A stretch of 60,083 nt of DNA, the filler included, from Hausera hauseri (taxonomy: Eukaryota): NCBI GenBank assembly GCA_046269625.1. It is 10 parts of 10 records of this genome, joined end to end, with 100 filler letters (N's around TTAATTAATTAA, not from the genome) between each part and the next. Parts side by side here need not be neighbours in the genome. Positions count along the whole stretch, not along the records: positions 1 to 4,253 come from JBJURY010674773.1; 9 more parts are not named here. One strand, given 5' to 3'. The notes beneath the pieces were generated by a model that was given only the letters and a program-made list of their open reading frames with translations, was not told where the DNA came from and ran no database searches. Shown one piece after another: positions 1 through 52,755 of the stretch; positions within the stretch are counted from its first letter, which is position 1; every line of letters begins with the position of its first letter. Both the position numbers and the translations under genes were made by a program.

Positions 1-835
1 ATAAGGTCGTGTCCCATATTACTGTTGCTTCTTGCCTCATGAATTTCATTCCTTCTGTTATATTACTTGACCAATATATAGTTGGAGTGTTTACTTCCGC
101 AATTACTTTAACGGTTGAATCTGACAGATTTCCAATCATTTCATCACTATAACGATAACCGGTTGTCACACTAAACATTCCTCCTTTTAGGAATGCCAAG
201 TGACAGCTTGATTTTGTATCATTCGTCCAAGTTAATAACCCAGTTCTTACTCGGCATGACTCTGTTGTATATTTACAAAATGGTGCATCGACCATTGTAC
301 CTGCAGTGGTGTCAAAAATGAATTTAGCTGTTTTTAATTCAACAATGTACCTTTGTAATATGTACATTTCCTTTACTTCCGCCATTAGCTGCACAGTTTC
401 CTGCAGCATCAATTGTTCCTTCCTTATAACTTAATACTGTTTGTACTTTTCCTGGTTGAATAGCTATAGTAAATCCATCCAAGTTAATTCTCCCGTATTG
501 TATGGCCTCTAAGCATTGCTGTGGTGTAATTTTTAATTGCATGAATGGCGTGAAAGGTTTGATTTCAGATATGCAACTATGCATCCCACAATATTGCAAT
601 TTTTCACACATTTTTAAAGAACATTCATAACCGGATATGTGTAACTTCTGTTTTTGCTGGTAGACATATATATGTTCTTTTTGAGTAGTTAGACGATGAG
701 GTGAGCATCTGGACATTTATCTAAATTCATCAAGGAATAGTACTTTCCGTGTTTAATGTTATTAATACCCGCTCCTTTCGGTAGGATAGTGGTTAAAAGC
801 AATAAGACAGATAATATTGCATTTATAATGTTTTT
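1..835 (-). pseudogene. env: Chuvirus-like (class III / gB-type) envelope glycoprotein, N-terminal part, frameshifted
   Basis: Signal-like IINAILSVLLLLTTIL, then YYSLMNLDKC, ECSLK...YCGMHS (576-593), ITPQQCLEAIQYG, GTIDAAGNC and CKYTTESC..GLLTW...SC..LKGG. The Cys spacing and YCGMHS motif are typical of chuvirus-type G proteins. Frameshifts near 700 and 350. Confidence 0.75.
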
Positions 836-1580
836 AGTATTATTTGACGCTGGTTTTTCTTCCCTTTCTTCTTGTATTTGTTTTTCCTTTATACTCTCTG
901 TAAGTTGAGTTACAACTTCTGGCAACGTTTCTAGAGTCATTCTTGGTACTGACTGCTGAACTTGTGCTGATACGTTTTTATAAACATCAGAGTCGATCAA
1001 GTCAATTATAATTGGAATGATTTCCTTAATTTCAGATTTACTTTCTACTGTCGTTATAAGAAAAACTAACGTTTTTTCGATACGTCTTTTCGTCAGTGTT
1101 TGTAATGGTTTCTTAACTATTTGTTCACGGCAATGTTTAGGCATTTGATCTCTTTGATATTGATTGCCAGTTATTTTACACATTTTATCCAACTTGGTGT
1201 TCCTTTAATGATAGTTATTACACCGGTAACGATATCGTATAATTCTTTTACTATATCACGAATTATCTTGTAATTCTTATTTGTTTTTATAACTTCAATT
1301 GTAGTCATTTTTTGAACGAAAGCATTTATTATAAAATCCTCATTTGCTTGTCTTTTAAGTTTTTTCTGTTCAGCTTGTAGTAGCTGCTTGGGTATAACCT
1401 GATGGATTTCCTTATCATATTCAGCTATGGGCGTTATTTGCTGTGTCTGGATGTTGTGTTTACGTTTGTTTACGAAAAAATTTTTGTCATTTATTCCAAG
1501 AATTTCTTCGTCTATTTAACTTTTTCTTGTCCATCAGAAACTCGTTTGATTATGTCTTCTTTAAGTAACTGTTTAGTTTA

Positions 1581-1796
1581 TATGACATGAATTTCGTTAT
1601 TTTCTCCTTGTAATGTGCCTACTTCTGTTACGTAAGAAGCGTTATCAAGTATTCGATTTGCAAAGATAATTCGCATATAATTTATGTTTATTTTGGTTTC
1701 TTCCGCTATTGCCTGTTTTGTAGCTAGTACGTTCTCGTGAGTAGACATAATTATTTTCATTTCTTTAGTCTTTAGAGTTATTATTTTTAATGGAAG
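1581..1796 (-). pseudogene. Ubiquitin-like (beta-grasp) domain within the element polyprotein
   Basis: LPLKIITLKTKEMKIIMSTHENVLATKQAIAEETKININYMRIIFANRILDN...IHVI aligns without gaps to ubiquitin 1-50 with identities at T7, L8, K11, K27, I30, I36, R42, I44, F45, A46, L50. IHVI matches LHLV. No C-terminal GG is visible. Confidence 0.75.
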
Positions 1797-3531
1797 TATT
1801 AAAGGGAATTTTGTCGGAATGTAGTTCCGTATTGTTTGAACAACATTTTTGGTAATGCATTATATCTATTATTATCAGCTGCCAATATAATTAATTCTGG
1901 TATTTTATCCTTTAATGCTTGTAAATCAAATTTTAGTTCAGAGATTTGATAGATGCTCATCGAAGACTTCAGGCCAAATTTGAGTTAAAGAAATATCAGA
2001 TTTCAATTTTCCGGGTATATATTGCACTTGATATACTAGATCTTGATGAGGTTGTGTTATAACCTCTTCATACTCTTGTAAAGTTTTTCTTTATCTCCTT
2101 CGGTTAAATTTAATTCATCGGCAGTTTGGGCTTCTTCCGAATCATTTAGTTCTTCTAATGGTATGTCATCAATGTCTTGATTTTGATTACTTGTCGCATG
2201 TTCATACCAATCAGCTACTTTTTGGATTTTCTTTTTATCTAATTCTGTAAAGAATGGTTTAAGAGTTGATATCATTTTAAAATGTTTTCAGCTTTGGGTT
2301 TATCGGCTGGTTTAATTCTTCTGTATTTGAGTTTTAACTTTAACTCTTCAATTTTATTTATGATTTTAAGAGTACCTTCTATTTTATCAATAAAACTTTC
2401 TATGGAATTTATTTTAACCCGATCTCTTTCTGAAAACATTTTTAAATTTATTTCATTTTAAAATTTGTTGATATAATTTTTCCTGCGACAAATTAGGAAG
2501 GTTAAGTTGGCTCAATCTTTCAATTCTAAGTTTTAATTCGTTAACCTTTTTTATAGTTGGTTTAGTATATTTATCGATTCCTCCCCTAAATTCAAAGATA
2601 CGTTTTTCATTATCTTTTCGAAAAGGATATTCTGATGTCAGAGCTATTTCATTTTTTTTATGAATCCACTTCTTTTTTTCCTGTCTTGAAAGCTTCATTT
2701 GAGTTTTTTCTCAAGTTGAGTTAAGGTGGAAATCTTTTCCATGTCGACACCTCTAGCTTTTTGTAGCAATTGTGACAAAGTATCTTTTGTCTGAGTAGAA
2801 TCCTCAGTTAAATCTACTGCTTCTACTGATAACTACTTGTGTGATTTTTGAGAGATTGAGGTATCTCTTTTTCTACCTAAAACCTCATCTATTACTTTGT
2901 CATTTTCAGTACATTGTTTACTGTAATGATTTTTGTGTATTTGTTTTAATGTCTATAAAAGATCACCAAATACTGTAGATTGTTTCAACTTTTTTGGATC
3001 ATTTAGATGCCCGGACAAAGTCACTAACCGCATTTCTAGTAAATCCTTTGCATACTCTGGTATTTCTCCGCTTAGTATATTTTTGACATCTTGCTTTATT
3101 TTCTTGGTAACATATTTCTCTTCGTTATTATCTTCAGATATCATTTCTATTGGTTCAGCATATGGTTTTTTCTCCGACTTTCTAGTCACTTTTGGAACCA
3201 CCTGAGTAAGAAACTCCTCAGTTTCAGGTGCCTTTTGTATCGGTGTTCATTGATGAATCGTTAATGGTTAAGTTTATTGTACCTCAGTTTCTAGTTTATT
3301 TAAAACTTTATCGATTGTATTAGCAATTATCAAAGATTTCTCAGAACAATCGCTTGACAAATCATCTAAATCTGGATTAAATTCTTTTTGCTCTTGTTCA
3401 CTTTCCCCCTCATCTTTCTCTAATTAAGCTAGTGAGTTTACATCTATTTCCTCATCAGAGTTTGGTTGTGTAGGTGCATTTTGTTGCATTTGTGAAGATT
3501 CAACTTCAGGTCCTACAGGCATAGCTTTTAA

Positions 3532-4253
3532 CTAATATTCTTCGGCTGATGTTAAAGTTTTACCTTTAGATAATTTGTCTAAAACCCTTTTTCTCGTTTT
3601 AATAATTATTCTATTGGTGACAAATTCGTCCGTATAATCGTTCTCCTCAATCATAGATGATATAGGTCTTTTATACTTTCCTGCTTGGTAGCGTTTAAGC
3701 ATATCATCAACATCAGTGCTTTCTTTAGCAGCTTGACTAAGGAACTGCTCCTTTATTTGTGGAGGTATTCTATCTAATTTAATTTTTACGTCATCTAATG
3801 TTCCATGTAATAATGATAAATGCAACGCCTTTTCTTGTTTTACTGCTGGTAACTGTTCAACTAGGGTCATGCAACTGACCGAAGTATGACCATTTTGGCC
3901 GCATCTTTTGCATATCACTGGAGATCCATTTTTATTTAAGTCCACTCTGCCTTTCTGTTGGTATTAATTGGAATTATTTTTATTCCATGAATTCTTATTA
4001 TTATTATTGTTGTTACTGCAGGGACTTTTATTGGTATTGTTACCTTTGCTTTGTGAAAAGTGGTATTACTTTGAGACTCTCATGCATCGGATTTCGATTG
4101 TGTTGCTTATTGTCATCTTGTGATTATTGTTGTTGAAAATTTTGTTGATTTCCATTATTATTTTGTGAAAATTTTCTACTATTATTATTTTTAGGGTCAC
4201 CTGTAAATGGACCAACATACGCCTCAAGATTTTGGGCCTCTCTTCCTGCCTCT
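3532..4253 (-). pseudogene. gag: Gag C-terminal region with CX2CX4HX4C zinc knuckle
   Basis: CKRCGQNGHTSVSC is a canonical retroelement nucleocapsid knuckle. It follows an N/Q-rich linker and a capsid-end-like helix (EAGREAQNLE). Confidence 0.7.
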
Positions 4254-4353
4254 NNNNNNNNNNNNNNNNNNNNNNNNNNNNNNNNNNNNNNNNNNNNTTA
4301 ATTAATTAANNNNNNNNNNNNNNNNNNNNNNNNNNNNNNNNNNNNNNNNNNNN
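4254..4353. other. Artificial contig linker (same at 8948-9047, 13265-13364, 19212-19311, 30139-30238, 34844-34943, 39341-39440, 45722-45821, 53938-54037)
   Basis: Identical N44-TTAATTAATTAA-N44 blocks with stops in all six frames. Confidence 0.99.
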
Positions 4354-4612
4354 AATTGGTATCTATACCAAAGAACATTACATGTATTTATCGTGAACAT
4401 GGTTTACATTGTGCTTATAAAAAGTGTTTAACATTATGTCAAAGTTATATTGTTGCGAAATAAATGTGTTATGAAATTAGTTGGCCTTATCCTATATAGT
4501 AGTTACTTAGTTTTACTTGGCCTTATCCTATATCCCACATTACTTGATCAAGAAGACAACAGGTTATTTCTATACAACATTTATTAAACAAAGAACAACA
4601 ATATGTACGTAT

Positions 4613-7600
4613 TTACAATGTCACATGTCCGTGAGATAGTGTATCGATTCCATCACCCAGGATCTGCCTCTTGTCATCCATCCCATCTAGGCTTTTCTTC
4701 TGTAGTGTTACTGTACCAATGTTACGATCAGTAGACTAGACCCTTCGCATCTCTGATATGATATGAGTCTGCCCATGTAGAACTCTAACATAGTCATCAA
4801 AGCCAATCTTCTTGGTTAAGGTAGCCCTTTGAACCCCTTTAGCCCGCTTATTTACATGGCCACATATATCAATAGCATACATTTTGAACCTAAGAGCTAC
4901 AAATCTCGAGACAATTGCCCCATTCACCTCGTCTTTGAATTTCCCTAGGACTTTCTTGTTGGCAATAGAATAGTTGGGATGATCCTTTGGATAGTCCGAG
5001 GTATCCATGTGCTGAGCCAATTGGGCAAGGTCCTTATAAATATCATCTGTATGAATCTGGTAGATGAAACTATCAGTATCCGTATATATCAGCTGTATGG
5101 GCTTGAATGTGGGGACCATTATATCGTAATGGAATCTGTACATTAGGGTCTTTGACAGGTAGAGGATTGCCATACCCACATATATGGGCTTATTGAATAC
5201 CAGTGCTGTTTTCAGCATATGGATGCTGATCAAGTTCTCAAAATATATGATGCTGCGTGGAAGTTGGGCTTGGAAATAAGCTTCTTTGCCCGCTTCCACT
5301 CAGAGACAAATTCGATGTTGATCCTGTTGCGGATATTCTCCATGGTCTTGCCAAAGACCGAGTTGTTGTAAAGCTTGAACTTGTCCTTCTCAAAATCGTT
5401 CTTGGCATTAGTCCGCAGCTTCGTATTGAGATCTATGTAGGGCTGCAGCCACATGGACTGACTGAAATGCAGGGCTCTATAGATCTTGGTAATACGAAGT
5501 CCATGTCTAACTGCCTGCTGGAGATTGATGTAGTGAACTAAATACCTTTCCCTATTACCCAGATGACAGAGCAGCTTTCTATGCTTTCCATGAGGCGGAG
5601 GCCTGCTCTTACGGAGGAAAGACAGCTGTTGATGCCTTGCGTGGATGGAAGCCGGATATTCCATATCCACCTCCAGTATGTATCCTGTATCTCCAGTGGG
5701 ATTCAGGTCCAATATAGGGATGTTTTCAGGATTCTCGACTCATTTGAAGTTATCATATGGCAATGGGACGCTCATTGCATATCGATACAAGTTGTTGGCA
5801 TCCAGGTATGATATATATGAGTATTCCTTGGATGAGTCATACTGGGCCATATACTTGTTGTTGGCCTCGCTATACCGGTGAATGACATGACATTCCGCCT
5901 CTAAGGCTCCTCTCGATCATAAGGATCATGTCGAAATCCTTAATGATCTGAAGCCTTATGCCGGTATATCTCTGCATTGCTGCCCAACTCATCCCTGGAG
6001 CCGTAAAGAAATGAGCCGGATCCAATGCATTGCTCTTCATTGCAACATTCCTGAAACTGTCAAAGACATCTGTCAGCAGCAGCACGTCCGTCCTGAGGTA
6101 AATATCACTATATTCCCCTATTGTTCAGCATTGGAATGCATGCCAGACGTTCTGGGCATGCTGGTAGTCAGCATGACTGATATCACAATCAGAGAGGATA
6201 ATAAAAAGTCCTTCTTGTCCGGCAATGAGGTCTCATCCAGTGTTTCACATGACGTTATGTAGTCATAAGGAAACACGCCTCTCCTCTTGACTAGGTCAAA
6301 TGCAGTGGGAAAGAACCGCTTCGTCTCCTTGAGTTCTTCTGCAGGGAGGTTCTTCACTAAACTGTTCAGTGAAGACGACATGAAACGAAAGCTGTCTATG
6401 AAGAGAAGCCTGATTCTTCCAACATGCTTGGTAAATGTGATGTATTTTTCATCACTACTAGGAATCACATCTATATTACCATCAATGTTGCCTAATTCTC
6501 GGATTATGAAATGGGAATCATAGCCACTGAGATTATGGAACACTACAGGCACACGTGCATATTTTGAAGCGAAGATTGCAGTTGTTTCATGCTGCGCCTC
6601 AATATGTACCTGTAAAATGGCAGTGATCCTTGACTTTCCAATTTTCCTTGCTGAAGGACTTGTCGCACAAATAACATGTTGTTGCCTTGCGCCATTCATC
6701 TTGTTTCCACGACATGTTCATTGTATCAATATGCTGTTGAAACATGTTTTCAAGCTTATGAACCATACCTTCAAGTCGTTTCATGAAATGTACTGCTGCG
6801 CCTGCACCCTTGAATAGAAATGGTTCACTGTCCAGTTCTTTGGTATACATGCAATACGATAAGAGTTCATTATATTGGCATGCCGTTGTGCTGCTATGTT
6901 GAGGACTGGGAGTGCAGCTGTGAATTGGCCAAAGAATAGCTTCAAAGTCGCAATAGACGACAAATGGGACCTTGATCTTCTTCTCGAACTCCTTGAATTC
7001 AATATAGTCCTCCTTGGGAAATTCTAGCCTGATACAATAATTGCTGTTGCAGTACATTTTGTGCTCTGAAAGCTTGTCCACAGCTGAATCACCACTGAAA
7101 TGGGAAAAGCATCGTTTACATATTTCTATTCTTTCCTTATGTTTCGTAATTTGGGATCTCACTAGACACTCAAAGTTCTTGATCCAAACATAATGTTTCT
7201 TTTCTCCATAGTCTAGTAGGAGCAGATCTCTATGATCTTCCAATTCAGTATCATATATCTGCAGAGGATAAAATATGTCCTCATCATCCAATCCAATGAT
7301 GTTGATGGATATATTGTTGATTCGCCCGAATATTTTGATTTCATCTATGGATTGCGGGAACTTAATACATTGGAGATCATAGTTGTACTGCATGTCATTA
7401 TATAGCCAAACTCCATCTGCTGCGTGTTTTTGATCCCGTATGAGTTTACATAATGGCATACATGAAACACTTGTTGTCATTATTATGGACATTGACACAT
7501 GCTTTTTATTAGCAATTCAATCAAAGAGCTTAATATATGAACTACCTTGCATGGGAGAGTACTTGTAAACATACACAAGCAATCTCTTGATGGTTGCCAG

Positions 7601-8532
7601 AGTCCACCCATTCTTCTTACTCTGGCTTTCATCGGCTTCACGGATCAGCTTCGCATGCTCTTTATGCAGCCATTCTACTGTATTGGTGGTATCAAAAATA
7701 GGTCTATTTCTGGTCTTAAAGTCACTTTTGGACTCTTCTCCATCAACATTGATGTATGAAACCTCAAGTTTCATGTTAACTTTAAGTGCCTTGATCTCAG
7801 GTATGTTGCCCTAGAGAATCCCTATTGTTTCTTCCTCTGTGTACTCCAGGAACGCCTTGATGGTTGTTTGACCAGCTGCATCAATGACGTATTTGCAAAC
7901 TTTTCTCTTTAATGCTGCAGCATTAACTGACCTCTGTCTTTGGCTTTTTTATGAAGCCGCTACGCCTGATGCGCCTGATGGACCTGATGCGCGTTTTAGT
8001 CCTGCATCTAGGTGTTCTGCTGCATCTAGCTGTGATACTGCTGCAACTGGCTTATGTTCATTAAACATGATCTTCTTTGAATTTGATGTGAAGACAAATG
8101 ATGTTTGTAATCTTCATAAAACTGTATGTATTCTCCATAACATACAGTCTCACATTCTGGGCAGATATAATAGATGGTCCTATTGAATTTGTGCCCATAA
8201 TAGGTCCTCATGGTACTGTGGCAATTCTGAGGGTTGTGTATTGCACATGTGCAATACACATATGAACTGCACCCTCGATTTTCCTTTGGCATGAAAGTCG
8301 TTATTGGCATATTGGTACTGAATATTTGTTTTTTCGACTTTTTGAAGGAAATAAAGTGCTGTTTATGGACATTGTAAAAGTCTTCATAATTGGATTGGCA
8401 CACTACCTCACATGTATGGCATATATAATACTGAACCCTGTTGTACATATGGCTGAAATACTTCTTCATAATATTGGGACAATTTTCAGGCTCATGGATT
8501 TGAGTCAAGCATTCTCTGTATAGTTTGCACAT
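4613..8532 (-). pseudogene. polB: Polinton/Maverick/adintovirus-type protein-primed DNA polymerase B with endonuclease VII-like insert, fragmented by frameshifts and stops
   Basis: Motifs in order: GW.L..I..L.V...YSP.QGSSYI, ExoI VVYCDFEA, CYLC..VKDHCHFTG (EndoVII-like), ExoII FHNLSGYDSHF, FIDSFRFMSSSL, RGVFPYDY, DVLLLTDVF, motif A YLDANNLY, motif B KLYNNSVFGKTMEN, motif C YTDTDS, KGV and terminal DDKR...TLSHGH. Confidence 0.93.
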
Positions 8533-9047
8533 CTAAAAATCAACCAATTATTTTGAGGAGCACAATTAAAAAACTCACCATTCGTTGAAGTGATTTAGGA
8601 AATAATGAAATATATTGCCATGTCACCATGTACTGCCTCGCTTATTGATTAGTTTTAATGCATCAATTAAATTAAACACAGGACGGCGCCAACATCAAAT
8701 AGGTTTTCCTGTATGTGGAATCGAATGATGTCATTACATTCTTTGAATAATGCATGCTTGACCGATTATTCGAGTTCGAATAGATAAGTATTCGACTAGC
8801 AAGCTCAAATTCGAATATCTAACATCTTATTCCAGTTCAACATACATGACTACCTATCCCACCCCGCTTATAGATTTATCGATTTCCGCTTCACTGCACT
8901 TTAAATGCACATTTTGCTTAATTCGAAATATTGATTTTGTATCTATANNNNNNNNNNNNNNNNNNNNNNNNNNNNNNNNNNNNNNNNNNNNTTAATTAAT
9001 TAANNNNNNNNNNNNNNNNNNNNNNNNNNNNNNNNNNNNNNNNNNNN

Positions 9048-20905: not shown

Positions 20906-23900
20906 ATGGCTAAAAATAGACGAAAAAATAAGACGCATTTGAGAAGTAACGACCAATCGAATACACAAATTGACAACGAAAGTGACGTGGAACATAATTT
21001 AGAAGATGAACGAACCGACGAGAAATCCGAGGTTAATCACTATAAACCATTCTTCGTTGCTGTTATTTCGTTTTTCCATCGACTAGAAATTATTTTCCAG
21101 TTCCGTTCTGATGGATCATTTGAATAAAATTCGCAATATAAACGAGGAAATTTTGAAATGGAATTCGACCGACGTTATTGATATTCGGACAAATCGGAAA
21201 TTGCACGGGAAAATTAATTTGGACACAATTCGACAATCGATCAGTCGGAGTCCATTTTGTAAATATTTGAAACCGCAACCCTTGGATTTGAAGCAAACCA
21301 GTGCGGCTGCACTATGTGGAGTTGTTATAAAGTCGAATTCGGGTGATTTGAATGAAAATGATAACAGTACAGTTCACGGGGAAATTGATGGGAAAAGTAA
21401 TAAAGAGAATGTTGTTGTGGAAATTCCTGGTGAGTTTTTTGTGTGAAAATTTCGGTAAAGTTTGAAAAAATATGTAAATATAAATAATTTTAGTAAATTC
21501 TACCGAAACTGGTGTACATTCCCATGAGTCATCAGAAAAAACCGATACGTCTTTATCGCCGTCAAATGTCAGATCATCCGGACGATCAGTGAAGAAGAAT
21601 TATTTGGATATGTTGTCTTGTCCGGAATTGGAATGGCGTCGTTCTCCTGCAGCTAGTGGCGTTGATGGGACGATGAAATCGGAGAGACGAGCGTCATCAA
21701 AAAAAAGTAATGAATCGCCGAGTAGTGTTGAAAAACGACGACGTAATAGTAAAGGGCAATTAAACTCGAGTTTTAATGAGAAAACGGAGGAATTGGAGAA
21801 TTGCCAATTTGAAGTGAAGGAAGAGAGTAAGAATGGTATTATTGGGAAAGTAGACGACGAACGATTGTATGATTCACCAAATGTAAAGGAGGAAGATGCG
21901 CCGATTATTGCATTGTTTGAGAAGAGCAGTCGACGGTCACACAAATCGGGATCATCCGTTTCATCACTGCGGTCAGACGTATCACGGAAATGCTCGATAT
22001 GCAGTGGTAAATTGCTCAATTCGGCGGACTTATCCGGCGTTTGTCATGAATGCAATGCACAGAAATTAGCCGGTGGTAAAGTGGAACAATCAATTCAATC
22101 TGCTGATGATTTAGTATGTGTGTGGACACCTCCGTGTTGGTCTGTGACGAGATCCTCTAACGTAATGTGCAATGCCTGTTCTTTGCAGTCTCTGATGGAA
22201 CGTGGCGTATCGGTGGGTAGTGATTACGACGGACTGACTTTAGCGGAATTGCGGGATGAACAACGAATATCCACAGTGCGGCAGTCGTTAATTGGCGAAC
22301 TGCAGCGGTTGTTGAACACATACAAGGACATTGCCAGTCCAGAGCAGTCGTGTTTGTTACCGGACCGTGCGTCATTGCGCACAGACTGTACGTGGGATGC
22401 ACGGAGATTTCGACGGCGGCCAGAATCACAATCGTGTGATGTATGCCAGCAGAATAAGCAGCCGATTGTTTATTCGGTATTGCCGGATGGGACAGCCACA
22501 ATTTGCCATGATTGTCTGCTGGTAGCACATGATTCATTCCGCAGTATTGCAACATTAGCTGTTCCTTGTGGGAAATTGGATAGTTGCCGTAATTGTCTGC
22601 TATATCGATTTGTATCGATATGTCAACGAGAATCCGTTGAACATCGGTATCGATCAAATAAACAGTAATTATTTACCGTAATCATTTTATTAATTTGCTT
22701 ATTTTCCATCTGCAGTTCATCCGATGGACCGTGCAAACTCTGCCGACGGAAAGCAGTTGTGCCCGTCATCGTACTCGCCAGCGGTGTCTGTTTGTGTGTT
22801 GTCTGTATCTGGACAACAAAACTCGTCATTTTACGTGCCGATGATCGCTGTCCGGGTGGCAATTGCGATATCGACGAATGCCAACGTTGTCTCGCTGATC
22901 TGGCAGCAAAGGTAGCACCAATAGAGGAAATTCTATCATCGGCAATTCGTCCGGTACAAACGGATGTTGCCGTTGATGATAACAACAGTACAGCAACGAC
23001 AAATGAACGTTTGTCATCAGATACGTCATTGGAGACTCAGCGGGCTGAGGAGAATTGCTGGGGAAATGAATTGCTGGATGAAATTGCAGCACACGATAAA
23101 CGGCATGATGCAGCACGACCGGTAACGGTACCGCAGCGATATCGAGAATCATCGAAATTCGTCGATATGATAAAAAGGAAAAATCCGAAAGGGAAACGAA
23201 AGGACGAATTACGGAAGCAGAGACGATTGGAGAATAAAAAGCAAGCTGTAACAGTAGAAAGTCAGCGGGCAATCAAAAGGAAGGAACGAATATCACTGAC
23301 AAACAGCGACGGCATGCCGATAAAGAAACCGAAACGGAATCCATTGAATATCGACGCCAATTGGCATCAGCCGGAAAGCCGCAGTCGGCGAATGGTAAAA
23401 CCGCCGAAATTTTCGGATTTTATCGTATTGGAGAAGGATATAAAACATGCATTGCAAATTGGCGGTCGACGGCGGAATAGCGATAAATGGACTGAGGAAG
23501 AGGCGGATAATAATGATGGTGGTGGGGATAAAGAACAAGAACCGGCGGAGGAGGAGCAGCAGGCGGATGATACGCCACCTCCTAAGGGAATGAATAATTC
23601 CACGGAATCAGCAATGGATTTAGATGATGCTGTTCCACCGGCACCAATGAGTAGTACAGATGATGAAATTGGGGGGACATTTCGGCGGATTAAACGTGCT
23701 CAATCACCTATTGTAACGGCAACAACAACAGTGCCGTCTGAGGTAGAATCAACTGCGGTTGCTGGGGGGGATACTAGACAAGGCGGACCACGGGTAAAAC
23801 AAGTCAGTCGACAAAACGTATCACCATTGGATCTGGCCGGTACCGGCATCGGACAAAATGAGCCTAACAATCGTCGCACAGAATGCGGCTGTAGAGGATG

Positions 23901-26900
23901 TTTACGTAATCGAGTTTGTGGCCGTTGTGAGGCATGCCTGATGAACAGACGAACGCGAACAACGGCAGAAATGTGTATGAAAATGGTGTGTATTCGTAAC
24001 GGAATGTCGGTAGTTCATGATGATGATTTCAATGCGGCTGCGGAAGGGGCGGGGCTAAAGTTAGACGAATTGCGGATACAAAGGAGGGCCGTTGAGGTGT
24101 ATCGTGATAGCGACAGTGATGATAATGATAACAGCATTAACCGTAACGATAGCGATGATGATGAAATGGATCTCGAATCTGACCGCATTTATCCGGTAAA
24201 AGGGGAATCCATTTCCATCGAATTAGCCCATGAAGGCGGCTATCCGATTGTCACATCCCGTCGAGCACAGCCCCATACCGTCGTCTGTTACAGTTGCGGC
24301 AGCGGTGGCGATCAAATGATTAATTGCGTTTGTTGTGCTGAACCGTTTCATTTTTTCTGTATCGAATATCAATTCCGTCCGAAATCCAAGGAAATGTTCG
24401 TCTGTCGAAATTGCACGAAATGTCGAATTTGTGATGAGTACGGTTGTGATTTGCGATGTATAAAATGCCAATTGGGATACCATCCGCGGTGTATTGGACG
24501 ATATCCACCGGCATCTGGTGATGATCGATCGAATTGGGCATGTTATTGCTGCAGTATGTGTTTGCATTGCGGTGCTCGTGCTGATGATTTGATGACTGCT
24601 AACAACAACGGTACTGCTGCTGCACAAATTGATTGGTCTGACGATCCGTGGCAGTGCGGTAAATGCTGCCGGGCACGAAATAGCGGCCATATCTGTCCTG
24701 AATGCGGTCGTGCATATCTGACGAATCTCGATAATATCGAATGTTGCCAATGCGGCAAATTCGTACATCGGCAATGTGCCGGATTGACGGAGGACGAATA
24801 CGCCATATTACAAATCGGTAATCCCCATAGCGATTCGTTTGTCTGTTCGCAATGTGCAGCACCGCAACCGGATAATACTGACGACGACGCACGGCGGAGA
24901 GTCCCGCCGAAACGATTGAGTAAAGAGAGCGCAATGAAAATATTCTGTGGACAGGCAGTGAATCGGAGGATGTCGGAATTCATTGAACGAGCTGATGAAG
25001 TTGAGGATGGGTTGTTGGGCCAATTGGATGCATCTGCGGCAGGTGGAAACGGGCAGTCGATTGTGCGTGTGTTACAGCAGCTTGATGGGGTTATGGACGA
25101 TGATGATGATGAAATTGCGGTGACTGCAGCTGCTCCGTTTCCATCTGGTGTTGATGGGGAATGTCTGAATAGCAGTGATTCTGTTGTAGATGAATACGAC
25201 GACGATGCATTTGCCAGTTCTCCGCACCACGACAGTATCGATATTGACCGACCGCCGATGGGCATATTCACAAAATTATCGGCAGATCAATTCCTGACAT
25301 CAGTAAATCATTTGTGATTTGGTGTTATTTTCTCATTTGCTAACGAATTGACAGACTCATTTATTGACTGATACTTTGGCACGAATTATATTGCGATTAC
25401 GACGACATCCTACTGATGGGCAATTGTCGATGGTCTATGACAGACTGCGTGGATTTATGGCCGAATTAGCCGCTGACCTCTTCCCATGGGTGGATTTCCA
25501 TTTGTGTTACGATACGGCACAGGATATCGTACGACAGTACGCTGGTCGAGCTCGTCTTGTATTGCGTTATATCGATGATGTGACTCGATTGGGGTTGCGT
25601 AAGGAATTGGACGTGTTCTCGACATCGATCTGGGATATGGAGGAGAAATTGCTCAGCAGTTTCCAGCGAGGACGGGATGAGTTCATTCTGTTTCACAGTG
25701 AGCAACATTTGACAGGTCTGATTGTGCAATTGATCGGTCCATTTATTAATTGGCGATTGTGTAGCACTGAAACGTAGCATGGAGAATCAGCAATTCCGTG
25801 ACGGGCATTTTGCTCGGTATCTGGTGGCCGCAGAGAAGCCGGAGGATGTCAAACCGATGTTGGAGAAGGACGTGCGGCAATGCGCATTGTGTCGGCAGTC
25901 AGGGGACGACGGTATTGAGGGCAGGCTGATTTACGGCGGTATGGATGTGTGGATCCATGTGAATTGCGCATTGTGGAGTGATGAGGTCTACGAGAAGGAG
26001 GATGGCGAACTCGTCAATGTCGATGGGGCTATTCGACGGGGATGGCGAACGAGTTGTGATAGTTGCAGCAGTCTCGGTGCCACAGTCCGCTGTAGTGGCT
26101 GTGCAAATTGTTATCATTTCGGTTGCGCATTCCATGCGCTATCCGCTCGGATATTCACCGAATCACTCACATTCTATTGCACTGATGAACACTCACGAAA
26201 TGACTCGACCAGTCGTCCACTCGGTCTGGAGGACATGCTGATTCTACGACGGATTTATCTGCCATTGGGATACGCTGCCGATCCGGATTTGCCAACCGGC
26301 ACGAGGGAACTGACTGCTGAAGATGTCGTCGTCACTATCGGCAATCTACGAATTGATCAATTGGGTACAGTTGACGACCGGTCCGATTGTGCTCGTCTGC
26401 TTCTCTGTCCGCTGGAATTTCGTGCACGACGACTGTTCTGGTCGCATTTGGAGGTGGACACACTCGTTATGTACTATATGTGTATTGAGAAGGATTCTGT
26501 TGTCGGTACAGTTGGACAGAAACGACAGACTGACGAATCCGGTGTTCCAGTGCGCAAATACAAGAAGGAAAATGGTGGTGAAACGACCAAAACGACCAAA
26601 CGACGGGCACCGCCAGCCCAGTTGCCACCAGTGCAGGAGATCGTATATGAAATGGACGAATTTGGCAATCTGCAACCAACGGTCGATAAATCATCAGAAT
26701 TCGCTGCACATGAAGAAGAACCAAAGACGCGACGGTGTCGTACCGGTCTCATTCTCAACAGTAACAGGGTAAATCGGCGCTTTCCAAAAGACAGCGTTTT
26801 ACGAACGGCCAATCCGGACGCTGATATTCCTCGTCGGATCGTACCAGTTGGATGTTTCCATGGACAACGCTGGCTGACCGGACTGAAAGAGAACGCCGAT

Positions 26901-27851
26901 GTTGTCGCAGCAGTACGGCAAACTCAACCACAACAAGCGCAGATCAATCCGTCAAAAATAGTAGAAAGTCCACTTCAACCAGAACTCAAACTTCCCGACG
27001 AAGAACTTCCCATCGTTTCCCAGCCGAACGAAGATTCTATTCCACCGCAAGTGCCTCTCAGTCCAGCATCGATATCCATTCCACCCACCCATCCACCGGT
27101 GATGCAGCAACATACAATCGTACTGAACCAGCCGCAGCCAATCATTATCAACAGCGGCAGCCTCATGCAGTCACCCGTTGCTCGACCTGCACCAACAATT
27201 ATCCGCATTCCATCAATGTCATCCAGTGCCGCTGTATTGCCGAATCAGGTGCGTCCGCGTATTGTCAAAATAATGAAAATCCAATCGATGGCATCTGTCG
27301 TTCAGAAGGATCAACAGTCGCTATCGACCATGAGGATGTCGCCGTCAATACCAATCGTAAAGATTATCAATAACAATCGTCCAGTGGCCGATACGAATGT
27401 ATTGCGGTCGGTACTGACAACAACGGACCCCGGTAGACCAGTTCCATTGCAGTCATTTATCGTGGCCAATAGGTAAATTTCTCTGCTCGTTCTCTTCTGT
27501 ATTGATTTTTGGTGTCATTTTAGCAGATCGTTACCAACTAATACTTTCGGATATCAATTTGACGGAGAGGCCGATGAGTGTGCCAGTGAATGCAAAAAGG
27601 GACCATCATCTGTGGGTAGTGACCAGGACAACGGTACGGTGATCACTAATGGTAAGAGCACGAAGAAAGCCGATCGTCCAGGTGTCAAATTCACCATCAG
27701 AGGTTTCTTCAGCAATCGATCGCATCGGTCAAATTGGAAGTATCTCATTCGTAAAGTTCGCCAACTGCGAGGAACGGTCAAATTTAACTATCCGCTGTGC
27801 AGTGGTGACGGATGGGGTAAATCCGGATTAGATCATCGACACCTTATTTAG
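20906..27851 (+). CDS. trx: Trithorax/KMT2A-B-like chromatin protein, 7 exons, ~2,207 aa, ending at a premature TAG in FYRC (C4 fingers, CXXC, PHD1-3, ePHD, FYRN, Taspase site)
   Basis: In-phase GT-AG introns at 21032-21086, 21430-21493, 22665-22715, 25303-25354, 25716 (or 25698)-25764 and 27473-27523 join all ORFs without a stop. CXXC CGCRGC..CGRCEAC..C..C; three PHD fingers ~24280-24860; ePHD CALC..GRLIY..WIHVNCALWSDEVYE; FYRN IGNLRIDQLG..LCPLEFRARRLFWS; QFDGEAD. Confidence 0.88.
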
Positions 27852-28600
27852 TTGATTGAGCAACTCCCTGGTGCCTTCCTATGCCGTCAGTACGATTTCA
27901 AATTCCACAAGGGACTCGCCACCAAACGTAGAGAAAGACATGCCATGCAAACACTTACGCCCGTTGAATTGGCTCGATTTACCCCATGGACGCTGACAGT
28001 TGAAGCCCATATCGCCCGTGACCCTCTCGATTTCCTTAACTGCAAGGCAAACCGTGTCCCACGTTGCCATGCCCCTATTGATGCCGGCATTGCCATTGAA
28101 ATTATGCCAGAACCAGACAGCGGATACATGCAGCGTTTGGCTGTTCAGGTACGCGCATTGACTAACGGCGCAGCAGCACGGGCACATGCGGTTGCTGTTT
28201 GTGTGTCGAGTATTCACGGACGAGGACTGTTTGCACGACGGCCATTCGCAGCTTACGAGGTTATTATCGAATACGTTGGTGAGATTATTCGATCGATGTT
28301 GTCGGACATGCGTGAGGCATGATACCAGCGGACTGGTGTGGATTGTTACGTTTCGATTGGACCAGGATTTGATAGTCGATGCGACGTATCGTGGAAATGC
28401 AGCTCGATTTATTAATCATTCATGCCAGCCGAATTGTTATGCCAAAGTTGTGAAGTCTGAGGGCGAGAAACATAAAAATCATCGCCCAACGAGCAATATT
28501 CATATTGGAAGAATTGACGAATGACTATTGGTTTCCCATAGAGGATGACAAATTACCGTTCACATATGGCAGTTTCAAATGTCGAAAATACCTCAATTGA
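27852..28600 (+). pseudogene. trx: Decayed FYRC end, Win motif, SET and post-SET region of the trithorax gene
   Basis: LIEQLPGAFLC..YDF.FH, ARF, SSIHGRGLF..IIEYVGEIIR, DATYRGNAARFINHSCQPNCY, EELTNDYWFPIED..LPFTYGSFKCRKYLN*. Lesions: TAG 27849-51, TGA 28320-22, frameshifts ~28349 and ~28473. Confidence 0.9.
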
Positions 28601-30280: not shown

Positions 30281-30781
30281 ACTGATGGACGAGTTAGGAT
30301 GGACAAATTTGTGGCTGCAATGACTGGACAGAATGATTTTACATGGCGGATTGAAGGAATTGATGACAAATATAAAAATGACAAATATGAATACAGCCCA
30401 TCATTTCATTCAAATGGAAATGATGGATACAAAATGTGTCTTTACTATTGGATGAGTTCATCATACAAATTGTGTCTGACATTCAGACTAATGAAAAGTC
30501 CAAATGACAACCAATTGCAATGGCCAATGCAGGATACAATTCTGATTGAAATTGTTGACGAACAAACTGCATTGCCTGTTTTGTCAGAGAAATTTTGTTT
30601 GGCTGCTGCAGCAAATAGAAATGGACATGACAGAAGAGAAGCATACAACAAACCAATCAATGATAGAAATTATGGAGATGGATTTATTGAATTCATGACG
30701 TATGAAGAATTAAAATCAATAAAAGGTGCCATCCATAACGACACAATGACAGTCAGATGCCGCGTATTGCCGTCTAAATGA
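30281..30781 (+). CDS. Terminal exon of a TRAF-type MATH-domain protein
   Basis: FTWRIEG..YEYSPSFHS..GYKMCL..LCLTFRLMKSPNDNQLQWP..GFIEFMTYEEL..HNDTMTVRCRV is a TRAF MATH signature. A 38-nt GT-AG intron (30243-30280) precedes it in frame. Confidence 0.85.
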   Translation, partial: TDGRVRMDKFVAAMTGQNDFTWRIEGIDDKYKNDKYEYSPSFHSNGNDGYKMCLYYWMSSSYKLCLTFRLMKSPNDNQLQWPMQDTILIEIVDEQTALPVLSEKFCLAAAANRNGHDRREAYNKPINDRNYGDGFIEFMTYEELKSIKGAIHNDTMTVRCRVLPSK

Positions 30782-45821: not shown

Positions 45822-48800
45822 AACGGAATTTTTGGCGCAGAATTGGTTTCAGTATTCCCATCTCCCAGAACAGAGCCCCATGAACAGGGGAATTTTTGAC
45901 TCAGAATTGGTTTCACTCCTCCCGTTCCCTAGAACAAAGACGCATCAAAAAGGAATTTTTGGCGCAAAATTCGTTTCACTGTTCCCAGCACCTAGAGAAA
46001 AAGCCCAAGAACAAAGTCCACCCACTGTATCAATGGAATTTGGGCGCAGATGGATTTGACTATTCCCAGTCCCTAGAAAAAAGACTCAGAAAAATGGAAT
46101 TTTTGGCGCAGAATTAATTTCCCTATTCCCACCACCTAGAATAAAGATTCAACAACAAAGGAATTTTTGGCGCCGAATGGGTTTCAGTATTCCTATGCCT
46201 CAGAAAACAGCCCAAAGAACAACGGAATTTTTGGCGCAGAATTGGTTTCACTATTGCCACCACGTAGAATAAAGCTTCAACAACAAAGGAATTTTTGTCA
46301 CAGAATGGGTTTCACTATTCACACACCCTAGAAGAAAGCCTCAATAAAAGAGACCACCCATATAGAACAAATTAATTTCTGGCGCTGAAAGGATTTCACT
46401 ATTCCCATGCTTAGAATAAAGTCCCAAGAACAAAGCCCACCCACTGGAACAAAGGAGTTTGGGCGCAGAATGGATTTGACTATTACCAGTCCCTACTACA
46501 AAGACCCAGAACAAAGGAATTTTTGGCGCAGAATTGGTTTCAATATTCCCACCACATAGAATAAAGCTTCAGCAACAAAGGAATTTTTGTCGCAGTATGG
46601 GTTTCACTATTCCCACCCCCTAGAACAAAGCCTCAAGTACAAAGGAATTTTCGGCGCAGAAAGGGTTTCAGTATTCCCATCCCCCAGGAGAGAGCGCCAA
46701 GAATAACGGAATTTTTGACGCACAATTGGTTTCCCTATTCCGACCACGTATAATAAAGCTACAACAACAAATGTATTTTTGGCGCAGAATGAATTTCACT
46801 ATTCACAGCCCTTAGAACAAAGCCCCAAAATCAAAGGAAATTTTAGCGCAGAATGAGTTTCACTATTCCCAGTGGGTAGAACAAAGACCCAGAACGAAGG
46901 AAATTTTCGCGCACAATGGGTTTCAGTATTCAGATCCACCAGAACAGAGCCCCAAGAACAACGGAATTTTTGGCGCAGAATGGGATTCCCTATTCACATC
47001 TCCTAGAGGAAGGCCTGAAGAAAAAGGACCACCCACCTAGAACAAATTAATTTCTGGCGCAGAATGAGTTTCACTATTCCCACCCCTTAGAACAAAGCCT
47101 CAATAACAAAGGAATTTTTGGAACAGAATTGGTTTCACTATTCCCAGTCCCTAGAACAAAGACCCAGAACAAAGGAATTTTTGGAGCAGAATGAGTTTCA
47201 CTATTCCCACCCCCTAGAACAAGCCCCGAGAACAAAGGAATTTTCGGCGCAGAATGGGTTTCGGTATTCCCATGCCCCAGAAGAGAGCCCCAAGAACAAC
47301 GGAATTTTTGGCGCAGAATTGGTTTCAGTATTCCCATCTCCCAGAACAGAGCCCCATGAACAGGGGAATTTTTGGCTCAGAATTGGTTTCACTCCTCCCG
47401 TTTCCTAGAACAAAGACGCATCAAAAAGGAACTTTTGGCGCAAAATTTGTTTCACTGTTCCAAGCACCTAGAGAAAAAGCCCAAGAACAAAGCCCACCCA
47501 CTGAAAGAAAGGAATTTGGGCGCAGAATGCATTTGAGTATTCCCAGTCCCTAGAAAAAAGAATCAGAAGAATGGAATTTTTGGCGCAGAATTGGTTTCAC
47601 TATTCCCACCCCAAAGAACAAAGCCCCAAGAACAAAGGAATTTTTGGCGCACAATAAGTTTCAGTATTCAGATCCACCAGAACAGGGCCCCAAGAACAAC
47701 GGAATTTTTAAAGCAGAATGGGATTCCCTATTCACATACCCTAGAACAAAGCCTCAATATAAAAGTCCCCATACCTTAAACAAATTAATTTCTGGCGCAG
47801 AATGAGTTTCACTATTCCCACCCCTTAGAACAAAGTCCGAAGTACAAAGCCCACGAACTGGAACAAAGGAATTTGGGCGCAGAACGGATTTGACTATTCC
47901 CAGTCCCTAGAAAAAAGATTCAGGAGAATGGAATTTTTGGCGCAGAATTTCTTTCACTATTCCCACCACCTAGAATAAAGCTTCAGCAACAAAGAAATAT
48001 TGGCGCAGAATGAGTTTCACTATTACCAGCCCCTAGAACAAAGACCCAGAACAAAGGAATTTTTGGCGCAAAATTGGTTTCACTGTTCCCAGCCCCTAGA
48101 ACAAAACCCCATGAACAAAGCCCACCCACTGGTACATAGTAATTTCGGCGCGGAATGGATTTTAGCATTCCCACTCCCTAAAAAAATTCTCAAAAGAAGG
48201 GAATTTTTGGTGCAGAATTGGTTTCACTATTTCCACCACCTAGAACAAAGCTTCAACAACGAAGGAAATTTTGGCGCAGAATTGGTTTTACTATTCACAT
48301 CCCCTAGAAGAAAGCCTAAAGAAAAAAGACCACCCACATAGAACAAATTAATTTCTGGCCCAGAATGGCTTTCACTATTCCCATAGCCTAGAAAAGAACC
48401 TCAAGAACAAAGGAATTTTCGGCGCAGAATGGGTTTCACTATTCCCACCACGCAGAATAAAGCTTCAACAACAAAGGAATTTTTGGCACAGAATGAGTTT
48501 CACTATTCCCACCACGCAGAATAAAGCTTCAACAACAAAGAAATTTTTGGCGCAGACTGGGTTTCACTATTCCCACCCCCTAGAACAAAGCCTCAAGAAC
48601 AAAGAAATTTTCGGCGCAGAATGGGATTCCCTATGCACATTCCCTAGAAGAATGCCTCAAGAAAAAAGACTACCCACATAGAACAAAGGAATTTTTGGCG
48701 CAGAATGAATTTTTCTATTCCCGCCCCCTAGAAAAAAGCCTCAAGAACAAAGGAAATTTTGGGGCATAATGGATTTCACTATTCCCACTCCCTAGAAAAA

Positions 48801-51683
48801 CCTCAGAAGAAGGGAATTTTTGGCGCAGAATTGGTTTCACTATTTCCACCACATAGAACAAAGCATCAACAACAAAGGAATTTTTGTCGCAGAATGGGTT
48901 TCACTATTCACACCTCGTAGAAGTAAGCCTCAAGAAAATGTCCACCCAACTAGGACAAGGGCCCAAGAGCAAAGCCCACACACTGGTACAAAGGAATTTT
49001 GGAGCAGAATGGATTTCACTATTCCCACTCCCTAGAAAAAAATACTCAGAAAGAAATAATTTTTGGCGCATAATTGGTTTCACTATTCCCATCCCCCAGA
49101 AAAAGCCCCGGAACAGAGGAATTTTTGGCGCCGAATGGCTTTCATTATTCACACCCCCTAGAACAAAGCCCCAAGGATAAAGGCCACCCAACTAGAACAA
49201 AGGAATTTTTGGCGCAGAATTGGTTTCACTATTCCCACCCCTAGAACATTTGTCCAAGAACAAAGCCCACCAACTGGACTAAAAAAATTTTGGAGCAGAA
49301 TGGATTTCACTATTCCCACCCCCTAGAACAAAGGCCCGAGAACAAAGACCACACACTGGAACATAGGAATTTAGAAGCAGAATGGATTTCACTATTCCCA
49401 ATACCTAGAACAAATACCCAGATCAAAGGAATTTTTGGCGCAAAATTGGTTTCACTATGCACACCCTCTAGAACAAAAGCCCAATAACAAGGCCCTCCAA
49501 CTGAAACAAAGGAATTTTGGAGCAAATTTTTTTCACTATTCCCACTCCATAGAATAAAGCCGAAGAACAAAGGAAGGTTTGGCGCAGAATGGGATTCACT
49601 ATTCACGCCCCCTAGAACAAAGCGCCAAGGATAAATTCCACCCAACTAGAACAAAGGAATTTTTGCCGCAGAATGGGATTCATTATTCACACGCCCTAGA
49701 AGAAAGCTTCAAGACAAAAGACCACCCACCTAGAACAATGGAATTTTTGGCGCAGAATGGCTTTCAATATTCCCACCGCCTAAAACAAAGGCCCAAAAAC
49801 AAAGCCCACCCACGGGAACAAAGGAATTTTAGAGCAGAATGGATTTCGTTATTCCCAGTCCCTAGAACAAAGACCCAGATAAGAGCAATTTTTGGCGCAA
49901 AATTGGTTTCACTATTCCCACCACGTAGAACAAAGCCCAAAGAACAAAGGATCTTTTGGCGCAGAATGGGTTTCACTATTCCCATCCCCCAGAAATAAAC
50001 CCCAAGAAGAAAGGAATTTTTGGCCCAGAATGAGTTTCACTCTTCACACCTCCTAGATTAAAGCCCCAAGAGCAAAGAAATTTTTGGCGCAGAATGGGTT
50101 TCAGTATTCCCACTCCCTAGAACAAAGACCAAAAGAAAGGAATTTTTGCCGCAGAATGGGTTTCAGTGTTCCCATCTCCTAGAACGAATACCCAGGGCAA
50201 AGTAATTTTTCGGGCACAGTGGGTTTCACTACTCCCACTCCCCAAAACAAAGACCCAGAACAGAGGAATTTTTGGAGCAGAATGAGTTTCACTATTCCCC
50301 ACCCCGCCCTCCCTAGAAATGCCCCAAGAACAAAGGAATTTTGGCGCAGAATAGATTTCACTATTCCCACCCCCTAGTACAAAGGAATTTTTTGTGCAGA
50401 ATGGGTTTCACTATTCCCACCACTTAGAACATGGATTCAACAACAAAGGAATTTTTGCCGCAGAATGAGTTTCACTATTCCCACCCACTAGAAAAATCCC
50501 CAAGAACAAAGGAATTTATTGCGCAGAATGGGCTTCACTATTCCCATCCCCAAGAACAAAGATACAAGAACAAAGGAATTTTTGGCCCAGAATGGGTTTC
50601 AGTATTCTCACCCCCTAGAAAAAAGCCCCAAGAACAAAGGAATTTTTTGCGCAGAATGGGCTTCACTATTCTCATCCCCCAGAACAAAGCTGCAAGAACG
50701 AAGGAAGTTTTGGCGCAGAATGGGTTTCATTATTCCCTTGCTCTAGAACAAAGCCGCAAGAACAAAGACCATCCCCCTAGAACAAAGCAAATTTTTGGGC
50801 AGAATGGGATTCACTATTCCCTCCCCCTAGAACAAAGACCCAGAACAAAGGAAGTTTTGACGCAGAATGGCTTTCACTATTAGCACCGCACGATCAAACA
50901 CCGAATACAAAGAAATTTTTGGCGCAGAATTGGGTTCACTATTCCACCCCATAGAACAAGGCACCTGAGCAAAGGAATATTTGGCGCCGAGTAAGTTTTA
51001 CTATTCCCACCTCCTAGAACAAATACTCAAAACAAAGAAATTTTTGGAGTAGAATTGGCTTCATTTTTCCCACTCCCTAAAACAAAGTCCCAAGAAAAAG
51101 GTATTTTTGGCGCAGAATGGATTTCAAAATTCCCACGCCCTAGAACAATCATACAGTACAAAGGAATTTTTGGCGCAGAATGGGTTTCAGTATTCCCTTC
51201 CTCTAGAACATAGCCGCAAGAACAAAGACCACACCCCTAGAACAAATAATTTTTTGGGCAGAATGGCTTTCACTATTCCCGCTTCCTAGAACAAAGATCA
51301 AACAAAAAAGGAATTTTTGGCGCAGAATGAGTTTCAGTATTCCCATATCCCAGAAGAAAGCCCTAAGAACAAAGTAATTTTTGGCGCAGAATGGGATTCA
51401 CTATTCCCACTCGCTAGAAAAAAGACAGAGAACAAAGGAATATTTGGCGTAAAATTGGTTTCCTTATCCTCATTCCCTAAAAAAAAGGCCGAAGAACATA
51501 ACCCACCCACTGGAACAAAGGAATTTTGGCGCAGAATGAATTTCACGATTCCCACTCCCTAGAAAAAAGACTCAGAACGAAGGAATTTTTGGCACAGAAT
51601 GGGTTTCACTATTCCCGCCCCCTAGAAAAAAGCCCCAAGAACAAAGGAATTTTTGGCGCAGAATTGGTTTCACTATTCCCACT
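45822..51683. repeat. Complex tandem satellite, ~63-64-bp monomer with ~80-bp variants
   Basis: Consensus approx. AACAAAGGAATTTTTGGCGCAGAATGGGTTTCACTATTCCCACCCCCTAGAACAAAGCCCCAAG repeated for ~5.9 kb from the contig edge. Confidence 0.97.
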
Positions 51684-51693
51684 ATTATTATAT

Positions 51694-52755
51694 ATGGATT
51701 TGAGAAATTACAAATTTGTAATGGCTGATCAAGAAGTCCTGTTATGGACAAAATCAGGCACATTAAATTTTATGCGAAATATCAACAAAGTTGATGAAAA
51801 AGAGATATCAATCTATGCGGGCAAATTCGAGGGCCATGCCTTTGGCTCCTCATCCAAAATCATAAAGAATTCAGGCCAAAAAAGGCTTCGGAAACATAAG
51901 CGATTTAAAATGTCCCAATCGTCTTATTTACAAAAACAGATACATTATTTTCAATCAGAAGAATCCATTCAAAAGAATCATGAATTATTAACCGTTCTAG
52001 ATAACTTACAGATTGCCAAACTGATAGACGAATATGAGCAACTTATTAACGTTAAGTCTGACCATCTAAATGTTGTGGTACCAAGATGGATTAATTGTCA
52101 ACATTCATATTGGCTTGAGTTTGGTGAAAAGGCTTATGTAAAGATTTCCGAACACTTCGAAAAAGCATGGCTAACTCTAGAAAATTTGGTATTAGAGTGC
52201 AATGACATTGAAAACATATTAAGTGATGATGAATTGAATTACACAAATTTTGAAATGGACCAGTTAGAATTTAAAGGGTTAGAAATGGCATCTGTGTCTA
52301 TATTTCAGCATATTTCTGAAACTAAAACACAACTTAATGACGAGAAAATATGTGAAAAAAGTATATCAGATCTCGAAGGTGCTGATCAGTTAAATTTATT
52401 GACCGTTCCAAAACTCATTCGCCGAGATACGTTTGCTTCATTTGGAGATATCAGTTCTTTGGATGGTTGTGATTTAAACGAAATTATAGCTAAATTGAAA
52501 AACACTCAAAGCTCAAATTTAATACAGAAATGGAAATCCACTGATGCTTTTACGTTTGAAGTTAGAGGCAAAAATGTATCGAATACGAACGACTTTGATT
52601 TGTTACCCAGGTCCGAGTTTCATCAAGGATCAGAGAGTTGGCTACAAATCCTAGATAAATTCTCGAAGAAAATTGATGACGGAACTGTGCCACCGTTTGC
52701 AGAGAAAGATAATACGTACGCCGAAAAACATTTAATCATTCCAGGGACGTTGAAG
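51694..52755 (+). CDS. Exon of an unknown protein (~354 codons)
   Basis: Long stop-free frame in AT-rich DNA with protein-like composition, ending at a plausible donor (AAG|GTATTT, 52756). No recognisable domain. Confidence 0.55.

Follow-up and report, generated by a model that had tools for sequence, protein, structure and literature searches.

Positions 1-4253 of a stretch of DNA from Hausera hauseri (assembly GCA_046269625.1; 60,083 nucleotides (nt), called the window here) carry on the minus strand a decayed coding relic, which starts at the window edge and ends at a spacer of N's. The fragment is likely, at roughly 85%, to be the front half of a decayed giant Ty3/gypsy element that resembles the Burro/GYPSM1 elements of planarians, with pol placed after env and beyond position 1. 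Along the fragment, a zinc knuckle is followed by a spacer, a ubiquitin-like domain, a signal stretch and a glycoprotein; the coding sequence is broken, and no pol is detectable between the two ends. The position of the element's own pol beyond position 1 is what we infer from intact relatives. We class the fragment as a dead, divergent member of the Burro-type gag-env-pol gypsy elements, without placing it in Burro proper. The original prediction for this DNA had described a knuckle, about 3 kb of relics rich in lysine and glutamate (K/E-rich), a signal stretch and a glycoprotein on one strand, and all of these were found. A reading of the fragment as an unusual or undescribed lineage is not supported, since the order is already reported in the available parts of papers on Burro/GYPSM1 (PMC6431247) and on GAG-ENV-POL elements (PMC13524379). 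The arrangement, including the ubiquitin-like domain, is already published, and the fragment is a new example rather than a new kind.

Table 1. Features of the fragment, listed from the Gag end to the glycoprotein (ORF, open reading frame)
Feature	Position	Strand	Basis
N/Q-rich low-complexity Gag stretch ahead of the knuckle	3964..4253	-	Translations; the contig stops at 4253, before the capsid part
CCHC zinc knuckle, Gag nucleocapsid	3871..3912	-	CX2CX4HX4C motif, Pfam, relatives' profile, tblastn
K/E-rich spacer with broken coding sequence; no domain recognized	1985..3870	-	K+E 0.21-0.31 in five ORF pieces; one frame nearly stop-free per bin
Helical-looking segment that stands ahead of the ubiquitin-like domain in intact relatives	1808..1948	-	phmmer and profile
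Ubiquitin-like domain, no C-terminal Gly-Gly	1587..1796	-	PF00240 in ORF 1581-1859
Coding relic between ubiquitin-like domain and env, site of BCL2 in Burro	830..1515	-	ORF relics
Hydrophobic stretch before the glycoprotein, putative internal signal or membrane stretch	785..829	-	Hydropathy and alignment to relatives
Class III (chuvirus/gB-type) glycoprotein, first ~260 codons	1..784	-	Pieces 784-701, 704-378 and 379-26; cut at position 1

At the Gag end, the CX2CX4HX4C motif occurs once in the six frames of 1-4253, at 3912-3871, and arose in 10 of 2000 base shuffles of the stretch. The knuckle matches Pfam zf-CCHC at E 0.0085, under the family cut-off, and is matched to relative P0024 by tblastn (E 5e-4). 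It also falls on the knuckle columns (341-364) of a profile made from ten relatives (E 4.8e-4). N/R-rich stretches are seen by eye ahead of the relatives' knuckles as well. No capsid match was obtained for 3964-4253, where the contig ends before the capsid part.

The region between the knuckle and the glycoprotein is rich in lysine and glutamate, with K+E averaging 23% over nine ORF pieces in 835-3870. The ORF at 1581-1859 matches PF00240 at E 5e-6 and scores 26.6 bits, the cut-off being 25.4. The domain, at 1796-1587, resembles the DSK2 ubiquitin-like domain (E 0.069) and maps to profile columns 595-664 (E 0.0069), where P0027 has Pfam ubiquitin and Rad60-SLD matches. The segment at 1948-1808 is matched to residues 620-665 of P0028 by phmmer (E 0.0036), independently of the profile, and maps to profile columns 542-588 (E 0.0045, probability 7.7). 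These two segments adjoin in the window and in the profile alike. A single-sequence fold of the ubiquitin-like ORF gave one long helix with a pTM of 0.34 and is uninformative. ORF 1174-1515 did not match the ten-relative profile (E 0.62), and the atlas yielded nothing usable for this ORF or for ORF 692-1204. The ubiquitin-looking segment of P0021, taken alone, had no Pfam match, reached the UHRF1 ubiquitin-like domain at E 1.4 and gave no pairwise match to that of the window.

In the glycoprotein, ORF 342-716 matches PF24664 at E 1.2e-9 and profile columns 968-1078 with a probability of 97.7. The glycoprotein goes on in ORF 2-430, which has no Pfam match yet maps to columns 1085-1207 (probability 96.6). 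The first residues of the mature glycoprotein sit at the end of ORF 692-1204 (columns 936-968, E 2e-4), and the glycoprotein therefore lies within a longer frame, in agreement with the earlier claim that it belonged to a polyprotein. The most hydrophobic run of 15 residues in ORF 692-1204 (829-785, mean hydropathy 2.49) is a putative signal, recognized by hydropathy; the stretch aligns to its counterpart in P0015, P0021, P0023-P0025 and P0027-P0029. Both window glycoprotein pieces are matched by relative P0004 (E 1e-18). The predicted fold of P0004, made from a 20-row alignment (pLDDT 74), is best matched by herpesvirus glycoprotein B (gB) among PDB structures (E 2e-10) and by chuvirus-like glycoproteins among those of BFVD (E 3e-31). 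Judged by this modelled fold of a relative and by the PF24664 match, the window glycoprotein is a class III fusogen, as had been proposed.

The absence of pol between gag and env, which the original prediction had noted, was examined with profiles of protease (PR), reverse transcriptase (RT), ribonuclease H (RNase H, RH) and integrase (IN). The profiles were cut from natural relatives and run on 804 six-frame tiles of the window, in which stops were written as X. No pol was found in 835-3870, the best E values being 31 (PR), 14 (RT), 14 (RNase H) and 15 (integrase), that is, at least 14 throughout. Elsewhere in the window, on other contigs, the RT, RNase H and integrase profiles did pick up pol relics (E 1e-29 to 1e-12); the PR profile has no positive control. 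A regular-expression motif search gave no noteworthy pol motif in the stretch. Pfam, run on the full length of each of the six frames, gave no pol either, but it also missed the glycoprotein and is hence a weak negative.

A HMMER search with the glycoprotein piece in 1.84 billion protein representatives gave 17 matches. The top match, P0001, is a 2855-residue polyprotein in which the glycoprotein (G) is followed by PR, RT, RH and IN (E 2e-9, 33% identity). Its kin P0008, P0018 and P0015 also have G ahead of the protease, and P0015 has a knuckle ahead of G. P0021-P0031 came from two more searches, which used polyproteins as seeds and considered long proteins only. Among 17 examined proteins longer than 800 residues, protease follows G in 15 and RT-RH-IN follows G in 11 of those, pol preceding G in none; the exceptions are P0009, which is G alone, and P0019, which is pol alone. 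Four of the 15 protease-bearing relatives stop before RT as single proteins. The contig-mate cluster of P0008 includes P0019 as a separate RT-RH-IN protein.

The relatives also agree with the fragment in the order of its parts. Six of the seven window pieces, the ubiquitin-like segment included, map in order on the ten-relative profile, which upholds the proposal of a gag-accessory-env order in one element. The knuckle stands 326-916 residues before G in the ten relatives that have one, compared with about 1040 codons in the window. Within the spacers between Gag and G, Pfam recognized ubiquitin (E 4.4e-5) and Rad60-SLD in P0027 and Bcl-2 in P0025 (E 0.0015), in each case in one of ten proteins and below cut-off. 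The nearest relatives have gypsy-type Pol domains, and P0025 carries a Ty3 capsid match (E 3.5e-4). For this reason, Ty3/gypsy fits in place of the BEL/Pao element Anakin, which had been named as the comparison. The first protease of the relatives lies about 670-810 residues past the start of G and their RT about 1050-2260 residues past it. By this spacing, the first protease of the fragment's element would be expected about 1.2-1.7 kb, and its RT about 2.4-6 kb, beyond position 1. The original prediction had left pol either downstream or supplied in trans; relatives with pol after env make the downstream position likely, and nothing favours supply in trans.

The fragment itself has decayed. 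In 14 bins of 300 nt, the best minus-strand frame has 0-4 stops each and the remaining two have 4-16, and the open frame switches at least 8 times along 1-4253. Frame breaks in the glycoprotein region lie near 701-716 and 361-381. Such a stop pattern suggests a former single reading frame after neutral decay. The copy at 1-4253 can make no product and is non-coding. Copies of the stretch were found among the contigs of sequencing run X1 (share 0.43), where 895 contigs of graded likeness cover 30 of 30 bins. Their identity is at least 99% in 76, 95-99% in 126, 90-95% in 317 and below 90% in 376, and 505 of the 728 differing places are transitions. The contigs show a family of diverged copies along the whole stretch; they give no copy number. 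A single contig joins 763-872 to 977-1305, and loose ends occur at 977, 1162, 1517 and 2438. A word-based search with the glycoprotein piece matched none of 15 candidates. Scans of viral contigs confirmed 0 of 10 stretches with this piece and 0 of 13 with P0015.

Burro/GYPSM1 is among the closest of the described systems. According to the available part of Arkhipova and Yushenova (2019, PMC6431247), which cites Jurka 2007 and Grohme et al. 2018 on this group, these are giant gypsy-like LTR (long terminal repeat) retrotransposons of planarian hosts with long LTRs. Gag, a ubiquitin-like domain, BCL2, env and pol share one frame, and PR-RT-RH-IN comes after env. In their Gag, a capsid motif is accompanied by two or three CCHC knuckles. 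MATH/TRAF is present in the Burro-1 spacer and missing from ORF1 of the Dugesia element, so it is not universal in the group, and MATH can occur as an accessory ORF. The fragment and Burro/GYPSM1 have in common the knuckle, the long spacer, the ubiquitin/SUMO-like domain, the mononegavirus-like fusion glycoprotein and the lack of pol between them; decaying fragments with stops and frameshifts are reported in the same source. In contrast to Burro/GYPSM1, the fragment has one knuckle, with the capsid part beyond the contig end, and neither MATH nor BCL2 was detected in it. The Burro/GYPSM1 glycoprotein is in frame ahead of pol; that of the fragment would once have shared a frame with gag. The fragment ends inside env, so that pol, LTRs and size are known for Burro only.

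A second comparison is with the GAG-ENV-POL "ancient errantiviruses" of Nematoda, Bryozoa and Platyhelminthes, whose ENV is of HSV/gB type, HSV being herpes simplex virus (Chary and Hayashi, eLife, PMC13524379, in its available part, where Sacco et al. 2022 is cited for such elements). The gag-env-pol order and the class III gB-type env are shared. By eye, the Schmidtea mediterranea env rows (Platyhelminthes C1a) in the supplement of that paper resemble the glycoproteins of the window and of P0001, while its Bryozoa env rows look unlike that of the window. Those elements are intact and have Ty3/gypsy pol after env, as is seen in 11 relatives, whereas the fragment is decayed and ends in env. 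The word "ubiquitin" is absent from the main text. The polyproteins P0021-P0031, P0001, P0015 and P0018, which come from public assemblies, have the same order, the same segment with its ubiquitin-like module and the same glycoprotein subtype. Their glycoproteins are 20-34% identical to that of the window and their spacers are shorter (326-916 residues). Three other candidates were rejected. A solo chuvirus glycoprotein inserted as an endogenous viral element (EVE) does not fit, because the signal stretch here lies inside a coding track that is longer and reaches back to the Gag knuckle. Troyka was set aside, since according to PMC12440569 env is absent from all Troyka elements and the knuckle spacing differs, and Kuafuorterviruses were dropped, the available text of PMC11673190 having nothing on env. 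Arthropod glycoprotein EVEs are dealt with in PMC10084718, as far as its available part goes.

Nevertheless, a number of points weigh against the assignment to a Burro-like element. The sequenced fragment does not extend to pol, the LTRs, the capsid domain or the membrane anchor. The likeness to Burro is drawn from the published description, and the long-protein, polyprotein-seeded searches are biased toward the gag-env-pol order. BCL2 gave no match in 830-1515, a decayed region, with Pfam, the PDB, the atlas or the relatives' profile (E 0.62). MATH had no Pfam match in 835-3870, whereas a MATH ORF on another contig of the window scored E 9e-17. The spacer matches are individually weak, with probabilities of 5-8 for both pieces of the ubiquitin module. 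None of the 895 contigs of run X1 spans the whole stretch, and the run may be the assembly's own source. The glycoprotein is just 29-34% identical to its nearest relatives. Its phylogeny, which had been suggested as a check, is also divided (the trees omit P0019 and P0020, and rows spanning less than 60% of a piece were removed). The second piece falls inside the pol-linked clade, which splits from other glycoproteins at a support of 98; this piece finds a match in 15 pol-linked proteins and in P0004, whereas the remaining 15 proteins of the set show none. In the tree of the first piece, the window joins the short fragments P0002 and P0013 (97) outside that clade, and this group sits between the pol-linked clade and the chuvirus-like set with a weak support of 66. 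The disagreement of the trees, together with the low identity, points to a divergent member or a close sister of the pol-linked clade.

An unlikely reading is that the fragment, with its glycoprotein about 30% identical to that of the nearest sampled relative, belongs to a lineage that branched off deeply as a sister to the Burro-type elements, and that this lineage either lives outside flatworms or lost pol altogether and spread as a gag-env unit with a ubiquitin-like domain by means of a helper's enzymes. A non-autonomous, pol-less gag-accessory-env derivative between LTRs, copied with the pol of a helper element, is less probable again. The 4253 nt do lack pol, the spacer exceeds those of all ten knuckle-bearing relatives, and the four relatives that end before RT would suit such a derivative. 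However, the fragment stops within the glycoprotein, so that pol would be invisible either way; all 15 polyprotein relatives run on into protease, and the contig-mate cluster of P0008 supplies an RT-RH-IN protein. A chance stack of separate insertions, in which a gag relic, a ubiquitin-like fragment of host origin and a chuvirus glycoprotein that had been endogenised came to lie together, is highly improbable. The spacer matches that are weak one by one, the first glycoprotein piece not firmly within the pol-linked clade and the four loose ends in run X1 would agree with it, but the parts lie on a single strand in one continuous coding track, and their order and adjacency agree with intact single-ORF relatives. 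Related copies also extend over all the bins, including the contig that joins 763-872 to 977-1305. 

Equally remote is a BEL/Pao Anakin-type element, or another LTR lineage, that independently acquired a related glycoprotein: the fragment's own RT is outside the sequence and its glycoprotein is divergent, but the nearest relatives are gypsy-type in Pol and, in P0025, in capsid, and the ubiquitin module is common to the fragment and these relatives. The Anakin elements of mosquitoes are indeed LTR elements that carry a chuvirus-type glycoprotein, like the fragment; they have a BEL/Pao backbone, and no ubiquitin module is noted for them in the available part of Dezordi et al. (2020, PMC7642597), in contrast to the gypsy-type relatives of the window.

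For an element of the Burro-like kind, a mechanism can be drawn from the relatives and from the way polyproteins are generally processed. A single transcript running from LTR to LTR would be translated into one polyprotein, comprising Gag, the spacer with its ubiquitin-like domain, a class III Env, PR, RT, RNase H and integrase. Gag and the spacer would be synthesised in the cytosol, and the internal signal stretch would then thread the fusogen into the endoplasmic reticulum. The membrane anchor of the glycoprotein, expected beyond the fragment, would bring the chain back to the cytosol, where the pol domains would follow. As a result, Gag and Pol would be found inside and Env outside, and the parts could be cleaved by host signal peptidase and by the element's own protease. 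The ubiquitin-like domain may bind host ubiquitin-pathway proteins rather than being conjugated, and binding is the more likely because the domain lacks a C-terminal Gly-Gly.

Some further observations concern the relatives and the spacer. Several protease-like domains occur in P0018 (seven), P0021 (four) and P0001 (three), and these polyproteins also carry ankyrin and C2H2 domains, with what looks by eye like another membrane protein past the integrase. P0031 has an Ig domain past its integrase. The segment and the ubiquitin-like module appear by eye to be present twice in the Gag-Env spacers of P0025, P0026 and P0027. In P0025, the second copy is followed by a Gly-Gly roughly where that of ubiquitin sits, which could be a cut site for a host deubiquitinase. 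An ankyrin-like look of the fragment 3' of the knuckle was a by-eye impression unsupported by searches, and so was a BH1-like look near 1200, unsupported by Pfam, PDB and relatives' profile searches.

The remainder of the window consists of short contigs joined by 100-nt spacers of N's (4254-4353 and nine more), of which nine of ten contain TTAATTAATTAA. The contigs range from 27 to 50% in GC and may stem from more than one organism; with such wide differences, adjacency across spacers carries no meaning. On the minus strand of 4354-8947, a separate contig, two ORFs at 5.2-6.7 kb match PF03175 (E 6e-7) and are relics, broken by frameshifts, of a DNA polymerase B of the protein-primed kind, as in Polinton/Maverick-type elements. 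They are not neighbours of the fragment, given the artificial N-TTAATTAATTAA-N spacer at 4253. Decayed gypsy-type RT-RNase H-integrase relics occur on the minus strand of two separate contigs, at 35.9-37.5 kb and 56.7-58.6 kb. They are alike and about 33% identical to the relatives' Pol, and nothing indicates that they belong to the fragment's element. Long ORFs with PHD, zf-HC5HC2H and FYRN domains and a SET-like start lie on the plus strand at 21484-28322 (about 47% GC) and are likely an intron-poor trithorax/MLL-type gene. The MATH ORF mentioned above stands alone on the plus strand at 30281-30781, at the very start of its contig. A tandem array with a unit of 63-64 nt and about 82 copies occupies 45822-51700.

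On its own, the fragment matters little, as a dead and partial copy of a described architecture. It is a divergent addition to the Burro-type gag-env-pol elements. Taken together with its intact relatives, it suggests that the ubiquitin-like module between Gag and Env is a shared trait of the family and not a quirk of Burro-1.

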